Sequence record: OV754623 | Origin: Escherichia phage UGJNEcP1 | DNA length: 64,000 nt | Direction: 5' to 3' (one strand) | Part shown: one piece after another, positions 623 to 48,065 of the stretch | How positions within the stretch are numbered: position 1 is the stretch's first letter | Layout: each line of letters starts with the position of its first letter | Translations under genes and position numbers: made by a program | The notes under the pieces: generated by a model | What the model was told of the DNA's origin: nothing | The model's input: the letters and a program-made list of their open reading frames with translations, nothing else | Database searches by the model: none

Positions 623-1525
623 TTATAGACCAGCTAACAGGTCATCGAGGTCACCATCATCAGAGGATGAGGTAGAGCTCATGAAGTCATCTTCAGTTTT
701 TGCAGAACTAAAGGCTTCCATGTCTTTATCAAAATCGTCAAGGTCAGAAGCAACTTTATCTGCAACAGAAGCTGCGGCAGCTGCTGCACCGCCCAGAGCG
801 GCAGTACCAAGAACCTTAGCGAAAGATTCATTTAATTTTTCAAAGGATTTGAACTGGTCTTTAGCCGTCAAAGTGGTAAGGTCTACCATCTGGTCATATA
901 GTTCTTTCTGGAATGCTTCATCATTAATACGAGGAATTTCAGATTGACCCAAGAATTTAGATTCGTCATAGTTGCTAAAACCAGAAACCTGCTTAGCTTT
1001 CAGAACGAAGTTAGCACCTTCAAATGGACAAGTAACATCAACTGGAGTTTCACCCATTTCGGTATCAACTGCAATCATTGCATTGATTTTGTCCCAAATC
1101 TTTTTACCGAAACGATATTTAAATACTTTACCTTCGTTATCTGGAGCTTGAGGGTCTTTAACAACCAGAATATTAGCCCAATAAGAAGTTTTACGTTTCA
1201 GTTGAGAATATTCAGTTTTGTTGGTATTGTACAGGTCATTTTTAATAATGTACTGACATACAGGACAAGAGTCGTAATCCCCATGTGTAGAAGAGCAATT
1301 TTCAATATACCATTTACCATTTTTCTTGAAACCGTGGTTAACAAGAATTGCAAATGGTAGTGCATCATCAGTTTTTGCTGGCAAGAAACGAATTACCGCT
1401 TGACCATTACCTGATGCATCTAGCTTCAGCTTCCATTCGCCTTTATCTTCTGAAGAGAAACCTTTGTTACCGTTCAGTTTAGCCATTTGAGCAGCGAGGT
1501 CAGCAGTAGATTTACGTTTAAACAT
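623..1525 (-). CDS. 32: single-stranded DNA-binding protein gp32
   Basis: 300 aa; N-terminus MFKRKSTA...[27 protein letters not shown] matches T4 gp32 as I recall it; acidic Ser/Asp-rich C-terminal tail. Confidence 0.95.
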
Positions 1526-1612
1526 TATATTTACCTTTATTTAGATTATTTAATTTATTTACAGTTGGTTGCTACGACACTTATACCTCGTAGCTGGTAT
1601 GTTTTATTTATA
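1526..1612 (-). promoter_or_regulatory. gene 32 leader: AU-rich (U)UAAA repeat operator, hairpin/pseudoknot candidate, and a late-promoter motif
   Basis: minus strand upstream of the AUG reads TAAATAAATTAAATAATCTAAATAAAGG; hairpin GCTACGA-loop-TCGTAGC at 1571-1594; TATAAATA on minus strand at 1605-1612. Confidence 0.5.
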
Positions 1613-1641
1613 AAGTAATTTTAACACGCAAGAAATAAAGC

Positions 1642-2295
1642 TTAATACTTACATGATTTGATTGTTTCTATGAACAATTTCTTAGCAGCATTTCCATCGA
1701 TTTGAAGTATTTTTCGATATGCCTTTAATTTGGTAGAATAATTTTGCCAGACTAAATTGTCGGTAAGTTCGTCATGCTTATCTATAATATTCAAGAATGA
1801 ATCTAACAACAAGAAGGTTTCAAATGAAATTATATTGCTTTGTAGCAATTTAAATATGTAGCTCGACTGAACTTTATTATTATAATCAAATATCTCTTGA
1901 AGCGCACTAACTTCCACTTTCTTACTGAAATAGTAGATGTTACGTACGTCTTCAGCAAACGTCTCCTTGGCTTGTTTGAGACGTCCAATGTATTCCCTAT
2001 AGAAAACTAATGCATCAGCGTCTGATATCTCACCAATCCATGCGTCTTGGTTAGCAACTAAGTTGCTTATGAATATCAAGGTGAGTTCCTTCAATTTATA
2101 TTTCTCTGCTAGTTTTTCAAAGAAATATTTATCTCGGCGTTTTTGATACGCATTATCCGAAACACGCATGCACCAGTTATATTTGATTACGTCATACCGA
2201 CCACCAAAATGGTTTTTGCACATCAAGTATAGTTTATATACTGATTTTCCATTAATATAACGTTCTCCATCAGGAGGCATGCGTATTTTAATCAT
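1642..2295 (-). CDS. 59: helicase loader gp59
   Basis: 217 aa, same length as T4 gp59; position between 33-side and 32. Confidence 0.85.
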   Translation of the reverse strand: MIKIRMPPDGERYINGKSVYKLYLMCKNHFGGRYDVIKYNWCMRVSDNAYQKRRDKYFFEKLAEKYKLKELTLIFISNLVANQDAWIGEISDADALVFYREYIGRLKQAKETFAEDVRNIYYFSKKVEVSALQEIFDYNNKVQSSYIFKLLQSNIISFETFLLLDSFLNIIDKHDELTDNLVWQNYSTKLKAYRKILQIDGNAAKKLFIETIKSCKY

Positions 2296-2971
2296 ATTTC
2301 CATCCGGGCCATTTTGAAGATTTAAGTCTATATGTAACTAAAGACGCAGAAATATTAAAAACATTTGAAACTTCTTTACACGAGGCGTATTTTATACCAT
2401 CAATAGTTATAGGTTTTTGTTTTTTAATAGTCCTTTCTCTAGAATGTGGTTTTGAATTTGCTATTCTAAGAGCTTCTTTAGTGGAATCAGGCATCGCCTT
2501 ATTCGTTTTTCTCCCTTTTCGGACTTTACTCAAGGCCAATTTGTGAGCTTCAGATAGTTTCTTACCCTTATTAGGGGACGGTATTTTTCTTTCTAGTCTT
2601 GTTTTAGATACTTTAGCCTTAGTCTCTTCAGATCTAGGTTTACCTAATTTAGAAAGTGAAATGGCCCTTTTAGCTTCATCACTTTGTTTTTTGCCAGGAC
2701 CACCTTTACCACCGGGAACTAAGTTATAAGTATCATCTCGCAAAACAAAATCTTCATTAACCAATTCTGCTTCTTTTTTATAGGCGTCCTTGTCATTATC
2801 ATATTCATAAAGAATTTCGGTATAAAAATTTTTTAGTCCATATTTAGCTTTGGCCGCTAATATAGCGCGGCCTGATCCAATATACCAATCTTTCTCTTTA
2901 TGTTTTTTATGTACGCCTATATAAATTTTACCATTTATTTTATTGGTAGTTTTATACACAACGTATTTCAT
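2288..2971 (-). CDS. GIY-YIG homing endonuclease (Seg-like free-standing HEG)
   Basis: N-terminal YVVYKTTNKINGKIYIGV GIY-YIG motif; Lys/Arg-rich C-terminal DNA-binding region with NUMOD-like repeats; 8-nt overlap with 59 and 4-nt overlap with 33. Confidence 0.8.
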   Translation of the reverse strand: MKYVVYKTTNKINGKIYIGVHKKHKEKDWYIGSGRAILAAKAKYGLKNFYTEILYEYDNDKDAYKKEAELVNEDFVLRDDTYNLVPGGKGGPGKKQSDEAKRAISLSKLGKPRSEETKAKVSKTRLERKIPSPNKGKKLSEAHKLALSKVRKGRKTNKAMPDSTKEALRIANSKPHSRERTIKKQKPITIDGIKYASCKEVSNVFNISASLVTYRLKSSKWPGWKYD

Positions 2972-3306
2972 AATAAGAAATCTAACGTATTAGTTTTTTC
3001 ACCACGAGCAACTGATGGGCGAAGCATGTTTTCGTCAATTGCTTCGCTTGTAATTTTTTCAACAATTCCTGTAGGAATAAATTTAGCAAATTGTGTTTCT
3101 GGAATAGAATTTTCTTCCAAGAAAGCAGTTGTTGCTTCTAAATAAGACATACCAAATTGTTCAACCATGGATTCAATAATGAATCCGTTTTCTTGCCGGT
3201 CAAGCAATTTAGCGATATCATCTTTATCGTGTTTTACTGCTAATTCTTGTTCAGATAAACCGGCCTCATCAACCGGTTTAATATCACTTAGTGAAAACTG
3301 TGTCAT
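2968..3306 (-). CDS. 33: late transcription co-activator gp33
   Basis: 112 aa; MTQFSL...ENGFIIE...EATTAFLEENSIPETQFAKFIP matches T4 gp33 as recalled. Confidence 0.9.
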   Translation of the reverse strand: MTQFSLSDIKPVDEAGLSEQELAVKHDKDDIAKLLDRQENGFIIESMVEQFGMSYLEATTAFLEENSIPETQFAKFIPTGIVEKITSEAIDENMLRPSVARGEKTNTLDFLL

Positions 3307-3553
3307 AAAGCTCGACTACCTCTTCGTTTTCAGCTTCAAATTGGTCACGAGCATCTTTATGATAAAGAGCTAACAAACGATTAAACATTTTTCCATCAAC
3401 GCCAAGCTCTTCTTTAGCACGAGTACGAATGTCTTTAATCAGTTCATTATAACCAGAAATTTTAAGTTTGTTATCGGAAGCTTCCTTGACTAGTTTAGCC
3501 AGTTCTTCACCATGCACATCTTGATTAAATTCAACTGCTTCTTTCTTAGCCAT
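3284..3553 (-). CDS. dsbA: late-transcription dsDNA-binding protein DsbA
   Basis: ORF 3284..3571; likely start at internal MAKKE giving about 89 aa as in T4 DsbA; synteny between 33 and rnh. Confidence 0.75.
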   Translation of the reverse strand: MAKKEAVEFNQDVHGEELAKLVKEASDNKLKISGYNELIKDIRTRAKEELGVDGKMFNRLLALYHKDARDQFEAENEEVVELYDTVFTK

Positions 3554-3560
3554 GTTTACC

Positions 3561-4478
3561 TCAGAATTCATTAATTACACTTGTTAATTTAGAAAGACCA
3601 GATTTTACAAAATATGAATAAATCTTGCCTTTAGGTTGTTGTTTATATGAGTTATAATACTCTATAATGGTTGAAGCAATATTATCAGGGATATAATCAA
3701 AATCAATGAGAACCAAATTTTCTTGATACCGTTTATATTCTTCTGCACTTAATAATACTTCAGCTTGAGAACGGTCGTTAGCAATTGCTTCAATAATTGA
3801 TGTTTTCATGCTCGGAGTTCGTTCACCTTCAACTCGAGTAAACCAGAAGTCACCACGAACTCGAACAGATGCGACACCATCCTTACGGTCACCTTTAAGA
3901 ATTTTAGTCATGCAATCAATTTCAGCAGAACCATTCTTAATTTTAACCCATTTTTTCTGTGGTGGCGACCACTGTTTAACGTTAGGATATTTGTGTAATT
4001 GTGTAAAGTCACCATCTGATGCAACAATACATACCTTATGTCCAGCTAATGACAAATATTTGGTTAATACACCAATATGGTCATCCGCTTCATACTTGTC
4101 AATATCCATTACAACGTATGGCATGTATTTCTTAATCTCATCAACAACTTGATGGAGTGCAGTAAAATATCCTTCCCAATCCCACTTTGAAGCTTCACGA
4201 TCGGTTTTACGATTTTTCTTGTAATAGTAAGCAAAGTCACGTCGCCAATAACCTGAAGTAGCATTATCCATACACAATACAAATTTTGTATAGCCTTGCT
4301 TACGGAACATCACTACGTTTTTACGAATTGAATTCAAGATTACATGGCGAACCATCGGAACAGTAATTTTATCGCCGTCTTCAAAGTTGTTTAATGCAGC
4401 TGCCAATGCAATGTTACTAAAGTCGGCAAGTGCAATACCTTCTTTGTAATCTTCATCCAACATCATTTCTAAATCCAT
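3561..4478 (-). CDS. rnh: RNase H (FEN-family 5'-3' exonuclease)
   Basis: 305 aa, same as T4 RNase H; synteny adjacent to gene 34. Confidence 0.9.
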   Translation of the reverse strand: MDLEMMLDEDYKEGIALADFSNIALAAALNNFEDGDKITVPMVRHVILNSIRKNVVMFRKQGYTKFVLCMDNATSGYWRRDFAYYYKKNRKTDREASKWDWEGYFTALHQVVDEIKKYMPYVVMDIDKYEADDHIGVLTKYLSLAGHKVCIVASDGDFTQLHKYPNVKQWSPPQKKWVKIKNGSAEIDCMTKILKGDRKDGVASVRVRGDFWFTRVEGERTPSMKTSIIEAIANDRSQAEVLLSAEEYKRYQENLVLIDFDYIPDNIASTIIEYYNSYKQQPKGKIYSYFVKSGLSKLTSVINEF

Positions 4479-4581: not shown

Positions 4582-7500
4582 ATGGCCGACATCAAACGTA
4601 AGTTCAGAGCCGAAGACGGTCTGGACGCCGGTGGCGACAAGATTGTTAACGTAGCATTAGCCGACCGTACAGTAGGTACAGATGGCGTAAACGTTGACTT
4701 CCTGGTACAAGAAAACACCGTTCAAGTATATGATTCTACGCGTGGATATAACAAAGGATTTGTTGTTCTTTATGACAACCGTTTATATCAAGCAATAAAT
4801 GATATCGTGTCTCCTTCAGGGGCATTTAACCTTTTACAATGGCGTGCAGTTCGTACCGATGCACAATGGATAACTGTCGCTTCTGGGACTTATCAACTTT
4901 CTTCAGGTGAATCTATTTCGGTTAACACTGGTGCTGGCAATGATATGGTTTTCACATTGCCAAATGCGCCGGTTGATGGTGATACTGTTGTTTTGGCTGA
5001 TATTGGTGGAAGAACCGGGACAGTTAAAGTACAGATTAACGCGTCTGTGCAGAGTATTTTAAACTTTAGAGGTGAACAAGTTCGTACAGTTTTAATGACG
5101 CGCCCACGTTCACAACTATTGTTTGTGTTTAGTAATCGCTTGTGGCAGATGTATATCATTGATTATGGTAAAGAATCAATCACTGTTACACCTGCGACAC
5201 CATATCAAGCACAAGCAAATGATTTTATCGTTCGTCGTTTTACTAGTGCAGCACCAATCAACATTACACTTCCACGTAATGCTAACAATGGCGATATAAT
5301 CACCCTAGTCGATTTAGATAAATTAAACCCACTGTATCATACAATTGTTAAAACATTTGATGATACAACGTCTATTGGTGAAGTCGGGACTCATATTGCC
5401 GAAGGCAGAAATGACTCTGACGCGTTTTTTGTTTTTGATGCTTCAAATAGTTTATGGCGTATATGGGAAGGCGACCAGAAATCGCGTCTTCGTATTATCC
5501 GTGCGGATTCAAATATTCGTCCAAATGAAGAAGTTCTTATTTTTGGCACAAATAACGCTACATCCGGAACTATTAATCTTACGCTGCCTACAGGAATTTT
5601 GAGTGGTGACACTGTTAAAATTTCAATGAACTACATGCGTAAAGGCCAAACAGTAAAAATTAAAGCTGCCGAAGGTGATACAATTGCTTCTTCTGTTGCA
5701 TTGCTTCAGTTCCCTAAACGTTCTGAATATCCACCTGATGCTCAATGGGTCTCTGTTACTGAACTAGAATTCAATGGCACTACTTCGTATGTTCCTGTAT
5801 TAGAATTAGCATATATTGAAGATACCGATTCCGACACTCATTATTGGGTTGTGCAACAGAATGTCCCTACGGTAGAACGTGTTGATGCTGGAACTGATGC
5901 TACACGAGCTCGTTTAGGTGTTATTGCTCTTGCTACTCAAGCGCAAGCAAATGTTGATTTAGAGAATACTCCAGCTAAAGAAGTGGCTATTACTCCTGAA
6001 ACGTTGGCAAATCGTACAGCAACTGAAGCTCGACGTGGTATCGCTAAAATTGCTACAACAGCACAAGTTAACCAGAATTCCACAGCAACATTTGTGGACG
6101 ATACTATTGTTACGCCTAAAAAACTAAATGAGCGTACAGCAACTGAAACTCGTCGTGGTCTTGCTGAAATTGCTACTCAGGCTGAAACCGATGCTGGTCT
6201 TGACGACACAACGATTATTACACCTAAGAAATTGCAGGCACGTCAGGGTTCTGAAACACTATCTGGTATAGTTAAATATGTATCAACTACTTCTGCTACT
6301 CCTGCTGAAACTCGTGGGGCAGCAGGCACTAACGTTTATAATAAAACCGTAAATAATTTAACTATTTCCCCTAAAGCCCTTGACCAATATAAAGCAACTT
6401 ATGCTCAACAAGGTGCAGTAATTTTAGCTGTTGATAGTGAAGTAATTGCTGGACAATCTCAAGCAGGTTATTCTCACGCTGTAGTAACTCCTGAAACACT
6501 ACATAAGAAAACTTCTACTGATGGACGTATTGGTTTAATTGAAATTGCTACGCAAGCAGAAACTAATACTGGGACTGATTATACACGTGCAGTAACGCCT
6601 AAGACGTTAAATGATAGGAAAGCTACGGAAGGAATATCCGGCATAGCCGAACTTGCTACGCAAGTTGAATTTGATACTGGAACTGATGATACTCGTATCT
6701 CGACTCCACTGAAAATTAAAACTCATTTTGATTCTTCTGACCGTACCAGTGTTAATTCTGATTCCGGACTTATTGAAGAAGGAACCTTGTGGAACCATTA
6801 TACTCTTGATATTTCTAAAGCAAATGAAACACAACGTGGTACACTTCGCGTAGCGACCCAGGCAGAATCTAATGCAGGAACTTTAGATGATGTTCTTATT
6901 ACTCCTAAAAAGCTTTTAGGGACTAAGTCCACTGAAACGTCTGAAGGCGTAATTAAGGTTGCTACTCGGGCTGAAACTGTAACAGGAACTTCTGCTAATA
7001 CTGCTGTATCTCCTAAGAATTTAAAATGGATTGTCCAGAACGAACCAACATGGGCTGCTACTACGGCAATTCGCGGATTCGTTAAAACTTCATCCGGTTC
7101 TATTACATTTGTTGGTAATGATACAGTTGGTTCAACACAACCTTTAGAATCATATGAGAAAAATAGCTATGCAGTATCACCATATGAATTAAACCGTGTA
7201 CTTGCTAACTATTTACCATTAAAAGCAAAAGCTGCTGACGCAAATTTATTAGATGGCCTAGATTCATCTCAGTTCATTCGTAGGGACATTGCACAGACGG
7301 TTAATGGTTCACTAACCTTAACCCAACAAACGAATCTGAGTGGCCCTCTTGTATCATCTAGTACCGCTACGTTTGGTGGATCAGTTTCGGCAAATAGTAC
7401 ATTAACTATTTCTAATACTGGAACGGCAACTCGTCTGATTTTTGAAAAAGGACCTCAGACTGGAACTAACCCAGTACAGACGATGACTATCAGAGTTTGG

Positions 7501-28221: not shown

Positions 28222-28271
28222 GTTGTCTCCTCGTTATGAAGGTATTCTATCATCCGAAATCTAAAGCAAAA

Positions 28272-37208: not shown

Positions 37209-37393
37209 TCGCAGCTCCCTGAGCTTGAATCACAATCAGAATAACTTGACCCAGAATCACCAGACCAAGACGATACATATGAATGATTATAACTTGAAGA
37301 GTTTGAAGCAGACTTAGGACGAATAACTTCTTCCATCATTCCGTCACCGATATATTCCCAACTTTTTTCGTGTGTATCAGGAATAGGCATCAT
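37205..37393 (-). CDS. hypothetical small protein with Ser/Tyr-rich tail
   Basis: ORF 37205..37516 trimmed to internal MMPIP start to avoid overlap; C-terminus SSYNHSYVSSWSGDSGSSYSDCDSSSGSCE. Confidence 0.3.
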   Translation of the reverse strand: MMPIPDTHEKSWEYIGDGMMEEVIRPKSASNSSSYNHSYVSSWSGDSGSSYSDCDSSSGSCE

Positions 37394-47165: not shown

Positions 47166-48065
47166 TTATTCCTCGATTACGACATCTTCGTATTTAGGTA
47201 TATTATACGGTGAAGAAATTAAAGCATTAAAGTAGATGAACTCACCAAGACCTGGATGGAATACTTCTTCAGGATTTTCGAAATATTGAATCTTCGGACG
47301 TCCTTTAAGAATTTGATAGTACTCAGTTTTAGTTGGATTAAAAATTCGAATCAGCGCTTCTTCAGGATACTTATTTCTGTCGAAACTATTATTTGGATCA
47401 GTTATATAAAGCGGTTGACCTAATTGAATTGCGCATTCAACCACTTGTTCAAAACGATAGCATGGGTCACTAATTCGAAATGGATGAAAAATACCATCTA
47501 GATGAATAGGAGCCAAATCACCTACAAGACGCTGCATGACGGAAGGACGTATAACTTTCTGCGTTACGATAATCTTATTACCATCTGCACCTGCGTTAAC
47601 CAGCACTTCTTTTTGACGTTCATTCAACATAGTAGTTTGAAGTGAACGATTAACAGACAACATGTCGGTTTTTAAGAATTCATCAATATAAAAACGTGGT
47701 TTATTAGGGTCTGCAGTGATATTGAAATTGAATTCTACATCAAAAGCGCCGTCATATCCAGTGATATCTGTGATTAGAAAATCACAATCATAATAAGCAA
47801 TTAATGAATCAACCACAAATTCATTTTCAGACCAAAAATATTTACGAGTGTTATACGCGTTATCTTTATACCATAATGGAACAAACTTAAATTCTGGGAA
47901 AAGACGTTCACATTCTTTAATATCAGATGCATTACGTGGATATGTAATCACATCACCCGGATTAGCACGGTGCAAATGAAGTTGGAAGTTGCCATCCTTA
48001 AGGATAGCATACTGTCCAGTTTCATAAGACCGCATACTCAAGATAGGTACGCGGAAAATAGCCAT
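47166..48065 (-). CDS. hypothetical protein in the beta-gt slot (candidate transferase)
   Basis: 299 aa; no confident motif; positional replacement of T4 beta-glucosyltransferase; stop/start abutting neighbours. Confidence 0.5.
   Translation of the reverse strand: MAIFRVPILSMRSYETGQYAILKDGNFQLHLHRANPGDVITYPRNASDIKECERLFPEFKFVPLWYKDNAYNTRKYFWSENEFVVDSLIAYYDCDFLITDITGYDGAFDVEFNFNITADPNKPRFYIDEFLKTDMLSVNRSLQTTMLNERQKEVLVNAGADGNKIIVTQKVIRPSVMQRLVGDLAPIHLDGIFHPFRISDPCYRFEQVVECAIQLGQPLYITDPNNSFDRNKYPEEALIRIFNPTKTEYYQILKGRPKIQYFENPEEVFHPGLGEFIYFNALISSPYNIPKYEDVVIEE

Follow-up and report, generated by a model that had tools for sequence, protein, structure and literature searches.

Why do some T4-like phages carry an endonuclease gene at a point where, in HEG-less relatives (those without this homing endonuclease gene, HEG), two core genes simply abut? 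The question is raised by a 64,000 nt stretch of the genome of Escherichia phage UGJNEcP1 (sequence record OV754623; hereafter the window), a genome segment of a Mosigvirus, T4-like and of the RB69 group, in which an open reading frame (ORF) of 227 codons lies between gene 33, for a late-transcription co-activator, and gene 59, for the helicase loader. We consider it very probable that this ORF is a free-standing, intact and selectively maintained HEG of the I-TevI/Seg type, with homing at gene 59 proposed by analogy with the T4 enzymes SegF and SegG. The gene is an uncharacterized addition to the known Seg-type class; it is ordinary, already annotated and involves no new mechanism. Escherichia phage UGJNEcP2 (OV877511, Mosigvirus) matches window positions 1400-3700 at 100% identity and has the same gene already labelled 'homing endonuclease'; a literature search found no paper describing the 33/59 endonuclease.

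Identity of the endonuclease and its junctions

The gene, its domains, its junctions and its two neighbours occupy the following positions.

2288..2971, minus strand: gene assigned as a free-standing HEG, 227 aa, ATG start, I-TevI/Seg-type GIY-YIG (ORF, PHROG 314, TIGR01453, hhalign)
2702..2971, minus strand: N-terminal GIY-YIG catalytic domain, aa 1-90 (alignments, structure model, Foldseek to 1mk0)
2426..2701, minus strand: linker, basic and helical, carrying NUMOD3-type repeats, aa 91-182 (helices of the model; Pfam NUMOD3 at 24.6 bits, cutoff 20.4)
2294..2425, minus strand: C-terminal I-TevI-type helix-turn-helix DNA-binding domain, aa 183-226 (PF20987, E 3.4e-12; 1i3j_A by phmmer and Foldseek)
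2968..2971, minus strand: ATGA junction of the gene 33 stop and the endonuclease start (sequence)
2288..2295, minus strand: 8-nt overlap ATGATTAA, right-hand copy of the direct repeat flanking the cassette (sequence)
1642..2295, minus strand: gene 59 (helicase loader), downstream neighbour and predicted target gene (Pfam T4_Gp59_N/C: PF08993, E 1e-49; PF08994, E 1e-44)
2968..3306, minus strand: gene 33 (late-transcription co-activator), upstream neighbour (PF16805, E 3e-26)

That the ORF is not a chance reading frame follows from its matches to PHROG 314 ('homing endonuclease', E 2e-56) and to NCBIfam TIGR01453 (I-TevI family; 74 bits against a cutoff of 56, covering aa 4-225), and from the 640 homologues it has at E<=1e-5. 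With 37 homologues combined into a profile, hhalign gave a collinear alignment with full-length I-TevI (187 columns, 97.7%, E 2e-12). The AlphaFold model built on the alignment of these 37 homologues had a mean pLDDT of 84.6, with block values of 82-94 across aa 1-90, and its N-terminal domain was arranged beta-beta-alpha-beta-alpha. When the model was compared with the PDB by Foldseek, the two best matches were the two domains of I-TevI: the DNA-binding domain 1i3j_A came first (prob 1.00), and the catalytic domain 1mk0 was matched with prob 1.00 over 95 columns, TM(target) 0.65. UvrC 1yd5 was also matched, weakly. A phmmer search of PDB sequences recovered only 1i3j, for the C-terminal domain, and missed the catalytic domain, so that profile and structure searches were needed.

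The GIY motif of the catalytic domain reads V4-V5-Y6 and the YIG motif Y17-I18-G19, placed by the model in strands 2-10 and 16-23. Residues Y6, Y17, G19, H21, Y30, G32, E67, Y82 and N83 show no variation among the 37 homologues, and Y6, Y17, G19 and N83 align with Y6, Y17, G19 and N90 of I-TevI as well as with T4 SegA, SegD, SegF and SegG; the pairing of N83 with N90 was obtained in both the MAFFT and the hhalign alignments. The glutamate column at E67 is common to the T4 Seg proteins, and its register in I-TevI is ambiguous. Mutation of the catalytic residues, a possibility raised in a preliminary description of this DNA made from the sequence alone, was not seen, the Tyr, Tyr, Gly, Glu and Asn positions being invariant in the 37 homologues. 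That description had also pointed to a basic C-terminal DNA-binding region, and this was borne out: aa 91-227 (137 residues) contain 37 Lys and Arg against 12 Asp and Glu, with a pI of 10.5, and the C-terminal domain is recognized both by PF20987 and, as the top structural match, by 1i3j_A. The linker helices of the model (98-108, 115-128, 141-152 and 162-173) are of the NUMOD3 type and stand in place of a zinc finger. The Cys4 zinc finger of I-TevI is absent from the protein, which has a single cysteine, C198, and shows a gap opposite I-TevI ~125-167 in hhalign. We infer that the endonuclease is probably active; its cut site and its homing, discussed below, are likewise predictions.

In many GenBank records the gene is called 'homing endonuclease' or 'Seg-like'; some call it, wrongly, 'group I intron endonuclease'. 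A group I intron origin, suggested by these labels and by the name of TIGR01453, was considered and rejected, as no Rfam family matched at E<=1 in 1500-3800. Because of this, and because the flanks are two genes that abut in HEG-less phages, the intron labels are misnomers. Records MK373778 (WFbE185) and OR062947 (348Ecol098PP) carry the label as a carry-over of the family name.

The gene order on the minus strand of the window is frd2-like, 32, 59, endonuclease ORF, 33, dsbA and rnh, after which gene 34 lies on the plus strand. The endonuclease gene had been described as wedged between 33 and 59 and overlapping both, and its coordinates proved correct. The gene 33 TGA (2968-2970) overlaps the endonuclease ATG (2969-2971), giving an overlap of 4 nt. 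At the other end the endonuclease TAA (2288-2290) is built from codons 2-3 of gene 59, whose ATG (2293-2295) sits within the last codons of the endonuclease ORF, giving an overlap of 8 nt. There is no segG at the 32/59 junction of the window, where the 59-32 spacer is only 116 bp, and a tblastn search for other Seg, Mob or I-Tev paralogues, made with eight T4 endonucleases over the 64-kb window, matched the endonuclease ORF at 2288-2971 only.

The HEG is under purifying selection. The 8 Mosigvirus copies sampled are all intact (684 nt), and across them the mean pS is 0.118 and pN/pS is 0.12; for 59, 33 and rnh, pN/pS is 0.03-0.08. Variable amino acid sites number 15 overall, with 3 in the 90 residues of the catalytic domain and 7 in the 45 residues of the helix-turn-helix region (aa 183-227).

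Presence, absence and structure of the cassette

Among the 154 Mosigvirus records that match the 59/HEG boundary, the HEG is present in 28 and missing from 126. The HEG-less records are shorter at the locus by exactly 676 bp, which is the length of the cassette, and the empty junction is exact, being TTATTATGATTAAA in the HEG-less phage vB_Eco_F31. The empty site reads ...GATTTCTTATTATGATTAAAATACGC..., with the gene 33 TGA overlapping the gene 59 ATG, and the same 33-59 ATGA coupling occurs in T4, where there is no gene at that junction. HEG-plus phages span the ICTV species mar005p1, shsm521, JS09 and 25307, and the mar005p1 record OZ035759 is without the HEG. HEG-plus and HEG-minus phages are interleaved in each of four neighbour-joining trees (gene 32, distal gene 59, 33+dsbA and rnh), whose topologies disagree.

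The endonuclease was also found beyond Mosigvirus. A distinct clade of homologues, 47-61% identical, occupies the same 33/59 junction with the same ATGA overlap in three more genera.

Dhakavirus (IME540, LQ5, AnYang): HEG in 4 of ~49 close records
Karamvirus (KMB20 plus metagenomic contigs): HEG in 1 of ~33
Winklervirus (LC53, CHI14, CBH8, Kc304): HEG in 5 of 10

Outside the 33/59 clade, homologues are at most 46% identical and are found at other loci. The expectation that presence and location would vary among T-even phages thus held when the 33-59 junction was compared across relatives: the gene comes and goes in Mosigvirus and leaves an exact empty ATGA, the T4 site is empty, occurrence is sporadic in three more genera, and conservation of the gene at the junction falls well short of universal. 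In a survey from 2010, RB69 and JS98 were entered as phages without homing endonucleases (PMC2993671); these are the type phages of two of the genera, Mosigvirus and Dhakavirus.

The orthologues of Dhaka-, Karam- and Winklervirus resemble the Mosigvirus copy in insertion point, domain order, overlap with the gene 59 start and sporadic occurrence. Their ORFs open with ATGATTAA(A/G) (M-I-K), where the Mosigvirus copy has ATG-AAA-TAC (M-K), the ATT codon having been lost. In Karam- and Winklervirus the linker is ~30 aa shorter than in Mosigvirus, and the Winklervirus orthologue has a displaced stop and overlaps gene 59 by 26 nt. In this genus gene 59 opens with ATGATAACG (M-I-T), in HEG-plus and HEG-minus phages alike (loci L030:3569-3594 and L014; LC53/CHI14 type); this start removes the TAA, so that the Winklervirus endonuclease reads 26 nt into gene 59 (...YYDNDSHAS*).

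Three further observations concern annotation and locus structure. A degenerate copy was suspected in Karamvirus KMB20 (Enterobacter phage vB-EclM_KMB20, OL828291) and rejected: a 199-aa ORF is intact at L045:1150-1749, with the GIY-YIG domain whole, and because this full ORF is present the 132-aa hypothetical protein at 1351-1749 reflects a miscalled start site, not decay. In the HEG-less Mosigvirus vB_Eco_F31 (OP870147, L002:1743-2396), gene 59 is annotated from an internal Met as a 212-aa product at 1743-2381; the conserved ATG overlapping the gene 33 stop yields the canonical 217-aa gp59, like that of T4. T4-like contigs from IMG/VR (L021/L022:2160-2456), whose gp59 is ~60% identical, hold ~300 bp extra between rnh and dsbA relative to other T4-like loci.

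The structure of the cassette is clearest in Dhaka-, Karam- and Winklervirus. There, the octamer ATGATTAA that begins the HEG exactly repeats the opening 8 nt of gene 59 and recurs at the HEG 3' end, so that the cassette is flanked by an 8-nt direct repeat. As read from these junctions, the cassette takes over the former coupled start codon of gene 59 and supplies gene 59 with a replacement start, and the coupling chain becomes 33 -> HEG -> 59. No Shine-Dalgarno sequence precedes the HEG ATG. Near the end of the ORF, conserved C-terminal W-K/N-Y codons put GGATGGA 4-10 nt ahead of the ATG of gene 59, possibly as a weak Shine-Dalgarno sequence for gene 59.

How such a gene would be expressed can be approached through its T4 counterparts. 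Many seg and mob genes are promoterless and overlap an upstream ORF, and the coupling of Seg/Mob genes has been discussed, with segC, segF, mobE and others placed in a promoterless class that is translationally coupled or dependent on scanning (PMC2988022). By analogy, the HEG appears to be expressed through termination-reinitiation coupling to gene 33. Pattern searches found no T4 late-promoter motif TATAAATA within the HEG and no MotA-box/-10 middle-promoter motif in 2288-2971; a scan for sigma-70-like promoters gave 18 matches against 13.4 +/- 3.3 expected, which is not above chance and is uninformative. The nearest upstream motif of the T4 middle-promoter type lies in the 3' end of rnh.

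3654..3678, minus strand: MotA-box/-10-like motif ahead of dsbA-33-endonuclease-59 (pattern search)

This motif is a candidate promoter of a polycistronic dsbA-33-endonuclease-59 mRNA. The MotA-box pattern used, TGCTTNA-N11-13-TANNNT, occurred 12 times in the window against 3.98 +/- 2.25 expected, a number that none of 100 shuffles reached, and the excess is consistent with the use of T4-type middle promoters by this Mosigvirus. Examples of the sites are 3654-3678, 6797-6822, 28244-28268, 37286-37310 and 47202-47226.

A diverged patch in gene 59 and its possible origin

HEG-plus and HEG-minus phages differ beyond the cassette itself, in a short segment near the start of gene 59.

2203..2274, minus strand: HEG-linked substitution patch, gene 59 nt 22-93 (table of single-nucleotide differences; identity between HEG-plus and HEG-minus phages in four genera)

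When the flanks of 8 HEG-plus and 7 HEG-minus Mosigvirus genomes were aligned, the differences clustered at window positions 2204, 2205, 2212, 2214 and 2236, corresponding to gene 59 nt 60-92. All 8 HEG-plus genomes shared one allele, encoding gp59 ...KNHFGG..., and 5 of the 7 HEG-minus genomes had the T4-like ...KQHFNG...; on the gene 33 side the Mosigvirus alignment showed no association with the HEG. The pattern recurs, much more strongly, in the other three genera, as seen in the identities between HEG-plus and HEG-minus phages within the patch and just beyond it.

Winklervirus: nt 22-93, 68-69%; nt 94-330, 100%
Karamvirus: nt 22-93, 62-72%; nt 94-330, 98%
Dhakavirus: nt 22-93, 83%; nt 94-330, 99%
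Mosigvirus: nt 22-93, 88-92%; nt 94-330, 98-99%

The distal edge of the patch falls at nt 78-93 in all four genera and the proximal edge at ~24, and over the last 150 nt of gene 33 there are almost no differences between HEG-plus and HEG-minus phages in Winkler- and Karamvirus. The changes are largely synonymous (22 nt but 4 aa in Winklervirus). Comparisons within groups free of the HEG (Tequatrovirus, HEG-minus Karamvirus and others) revealed no excess divergence at this position.

Two further ideas about the patch were tried and rejected. It does not travel with the HEG between genera, the HEG-plus patches of different genera being no more alike than the HEG-minus ones, and there is no universal HEG-linked amino acid signature in gp59: residue 28 differs in Mosig- and Karamvirus, in opposite directions. 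Some HEG-less phages of Mosigvirus also have a HEG-plus-type patch, ~20 records in all, among them AV111, F2 and the LF82 series. Separately, the IMG/VR sequence UViG_2700989062 (L018:3001-3652) has a gene 59 frameshifted ~19 codons in, with a locus 1 nt longer; the shift falls within the patch and is either a sequencing error or a real lesion. The match in Enterobacter phage PG7 is likewise 1 nt longer than its relatives.

The patch may be the co-conversion and immunity tract of the HEG. A tract that is asymmetric, sharply bounded and linked to the HEG would be expected of intronless homing from a nearby cut, and it leads us to predict a cut or recognition site near its distal end, most likely close to gene 59 nt ~80-95, or window ~2200-2218. 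Cleavage at a distance from the gene would have precedents in T4, where, according to Table 1 of PMC2988022, SegF cuts within gene 56 and SegG within gene 32, each at some remove from the place where it is inserted.

By analogy with T4 SegF and SegG, we envisage the following cycle. Transcription of the HEG would be part of the dsbA-33-59 message, and reinitiation would give a low level of translation. During mixed infection the enzyme would cut the HEG-less allele within the 5' end of gene 59, at an estimated nt ~80-95, and recombinational break repair of the T4 type would copy the HEG and the stretch from cut to HEG out of the HEG-plus genome. Substitutions in that same stretch would protect the HEG-plus genome, and recombinants parting the HEG from its resistant site would be self-sensitive, so that the interval would stay linked and diverge while the DNA just beyond it is homogenized. 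Exact excision of the HEG could run through the ATGATTAA repeat, and HEG-less genomes with a HEG-plus-type patch would fit as resistant alleles from a phase of HEG loss. Homing of this kind would explain why the HEG occurs sporadically and irrespective of clade in four genera, and why gene 59 has a diverged patch linked to it. Liu et al. 2003 reportedly found that, in SegG homing, the DNA separating cut and gene is co-converted.

These considerations lead us to speculate further that the HEG and the first ~90 nt of gene 59 form a co-inherited nuclease/immunity unit, evolved in parallel in four genera of Tevenvirinae through an arms race between target and specificity, with the cassette hijacking the 33->59 coupling. 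A linked interval at 62-83% identity and a DNA-binding end that changes fastest together suggest an ongoing arms race in an essential replication gene. This larger proposal is a tentative one, to which we give a substantial but not a leading chance of being right; if it is true, gp59 synthesis now runs through a selfish gene.

Several observations weigh against homing as we have described it. The patch was analysed in a small sample, 2-8 genomes per class per genus, and it could be a scar left by past recombination instead of a determinant of immunity. It might then owe nothing to targeting and represent a general hotspot of recombination or mutation, or the scar of the original illegitimate insertion, and it is true that patch sequences differ between genera and that two Karamvirus HEG-plus genomes are only 74% identical to each other in the patch. 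A hotspot or a scar would still have to accommodate the lack of excess divergence in the HEG-free comparisons, boundaries that recur (nt ~24 to ~78-93) in all four genera and solely on the gene 59 side, and a geometry that matches SegG, whose cut lies in gene 32 away from its own insertion site. We regard a patch unrelated to targeting as unlikely. The age of the gene also has to be weighed. The synonymous diversity of the HEG, 0.118, is close to that of gene 59, 0.125, and its GC content of 32.9% is in line with that of its neighbours, which together indicate a long-resident gene and not a recent import; the between-genus divergence of the HEG (~57%) matches that of the flanks. If the HEG is old in these lineages, its polymorphism could owe much to loss as opposed to recent invasion. 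Taken to its end, this argument holds that the gene entered the common ancestor of the genera, no longer homes and is now only lost, by precise deletion via the ATGATTAA repeats, and that it is useful to those phages which retain it, for instance in excluding competitors or adjusting gp59 translation. Equal pS in HEG and flank, between-genus identities of 47-61% for the HEG beside 55-63% for gp33/dsbA/rnh, direct repeats that permit exact excision and the existence of HEG-less genomes with a HEG-plus-type patch all agree with it. It accounts poorly for the interleaving of HEG-plus and HEG-minus phages in every flanking-gene tree, even inside single ICTV species, and for a sharp HEG-linked patch followed by 98-100% identity, which points to exchange that continues around a protected unit. 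Purifying selection acting on a nuclease whose catalytic set is intact is, moreover, what homing maintains, and loss and homing are compatible, both belonging to the standard life cycle of an HEG. An old resident that is now only lost therefore seems to us improbable.

The remaining points against the proposed reading concern catalysis, and they could be taken to mean that the protein is a catalytically dead derivative that only binds DNA at a specific sequence, for example as a repressor, in the manner of I-TevI autorepression. Neither MAFFT nor hhalign aligned any residue with the catalytic Arg27 of I-TevI, whose 'EKRWKRH' faces a gap, and the two methods disagree as to which glutamate (E67, E69 or E73) pairs with I-TevI E75. 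The Pfam score for GIY-YIG is below threshold (SegE_GIY-YIG, PF19835: 22.4 against a cutoff of 25; no match to PF01541), and amino acid variation is concentrated in the DNA-binding end, which holds 7 of the 15 variable sites. The lack of an Arg27 counterpart looks like a trait of the subfamily, because T4 SegA, SegD and SegF share it; this Arg-less pattern is thus common to SegA and SegF, which are listed as active endonucleases (PMC2988022, Table 1). R35 and K43 are unconfirmed candidates to stand in for it. The Pfam threshold for GIY-YIG is passed by the orthologues of IME540 and L031, and for the window protein GIY-YIG membership is based on TIGR01453, the hhalign alignment and the structural match; the motif had at first been called clear, and although Pfam misses its cutoff, the profile and structure searches support that call. 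The catalytic domain is also the most conserved part of the protein, with its 3 variable sites in 90 residues and the set from Y6 to N83 invariant across the 37 homologues. A dead derivative is in our judgement extremely improbable.

Relation to known endonucleases and wider meaning

The reading we prefer, a Seg-type HEG with its target in gene 59, can be set beside the characterized T4 enzymes. In its sequence features the gene agrees with the Seg class: it is free-standing, in the same orientation as its neighbours, overlaps the upstream ORF, has no promoter motif and has an exact empty site. Among T4 proteins the nearest paralogue is SegD, encoded between genes 23 and 24, which is 33.5% identical across 98% of the length and shares the catalytic-domain pattern 'YIG.H....D.Y.GSG....A..KYG..NF..EIL'. 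Unlike the HEG, SegD lies at a different locus and antisense to its neighbours, and its C-terminus is another helix-turn-helix, matching Pfam HTH_17 weakly and PF20987 not at all. The activity of SegD was given as not determined in a 2010 review (PMC2988022). With I-TevI, the endonuclease of the T4 td group I intron, the protein shares the full-length collinear order of GIY-YIG domain, linker and PF20987 helix-turn-helix; unlike I-TevI, it is not intron-encoded and is without a zinc finger or an alignable Arg27.

In lifestyle, the nearest parallels are T4 SegG (32/59) and SegF (56/soc), which, like the HEG, are free-standing cassettes beside an essential replication gene, without their own promoter and sporadic among close relatives (PMC2988022). 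The likeness would extend to a cut in the adjacent gene and obligatory co-conversion of the interval, with gene 59 as the target of the HEG where SegG has gene 32 and SegF gene 56. SegG is not a close homologue, as tblastn of SegG against the window gave no match. In T4, segG occupies the adjacent 32/59 junction (PMC2988022). Orthologues of SegG (58% identity to T4 SegG) were also seen at 59/32 in Dhakavirus IME540, AnYang and LHE83 (L003:4345-4962, L049:3096-3713 and L048:2399-3034); they have no Pfam match, and in IME540 and AnYang they are called 'hypothetical'. As these two phages also carry the 33/59 HEG, their gene 59 is bracketed by two Seg genes.

What the locus adds to this picture is fidelity to one site across genera, a borrowed start codon and a HEG-linked patch in gene 59 that comes with a concrete target prediction. 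The 33/59 junction represents an eighth-type Seg locus for the T-even catalogue, in the genera of RB69 and JS98. It also allows misannotations to be corrected, both truncated ORFs and 'group I intron endonuclease' labels. Because the locus is polymorphic in four well-sampled genera that are used in phage therapy collections, it offers a convenient natural system for studying intronless homing, the length of co-conversion tracts and target-site resistance. An endonuclease at this position could also help to explain local mosaicism and marker exclusion around replication genes 32 and 59.

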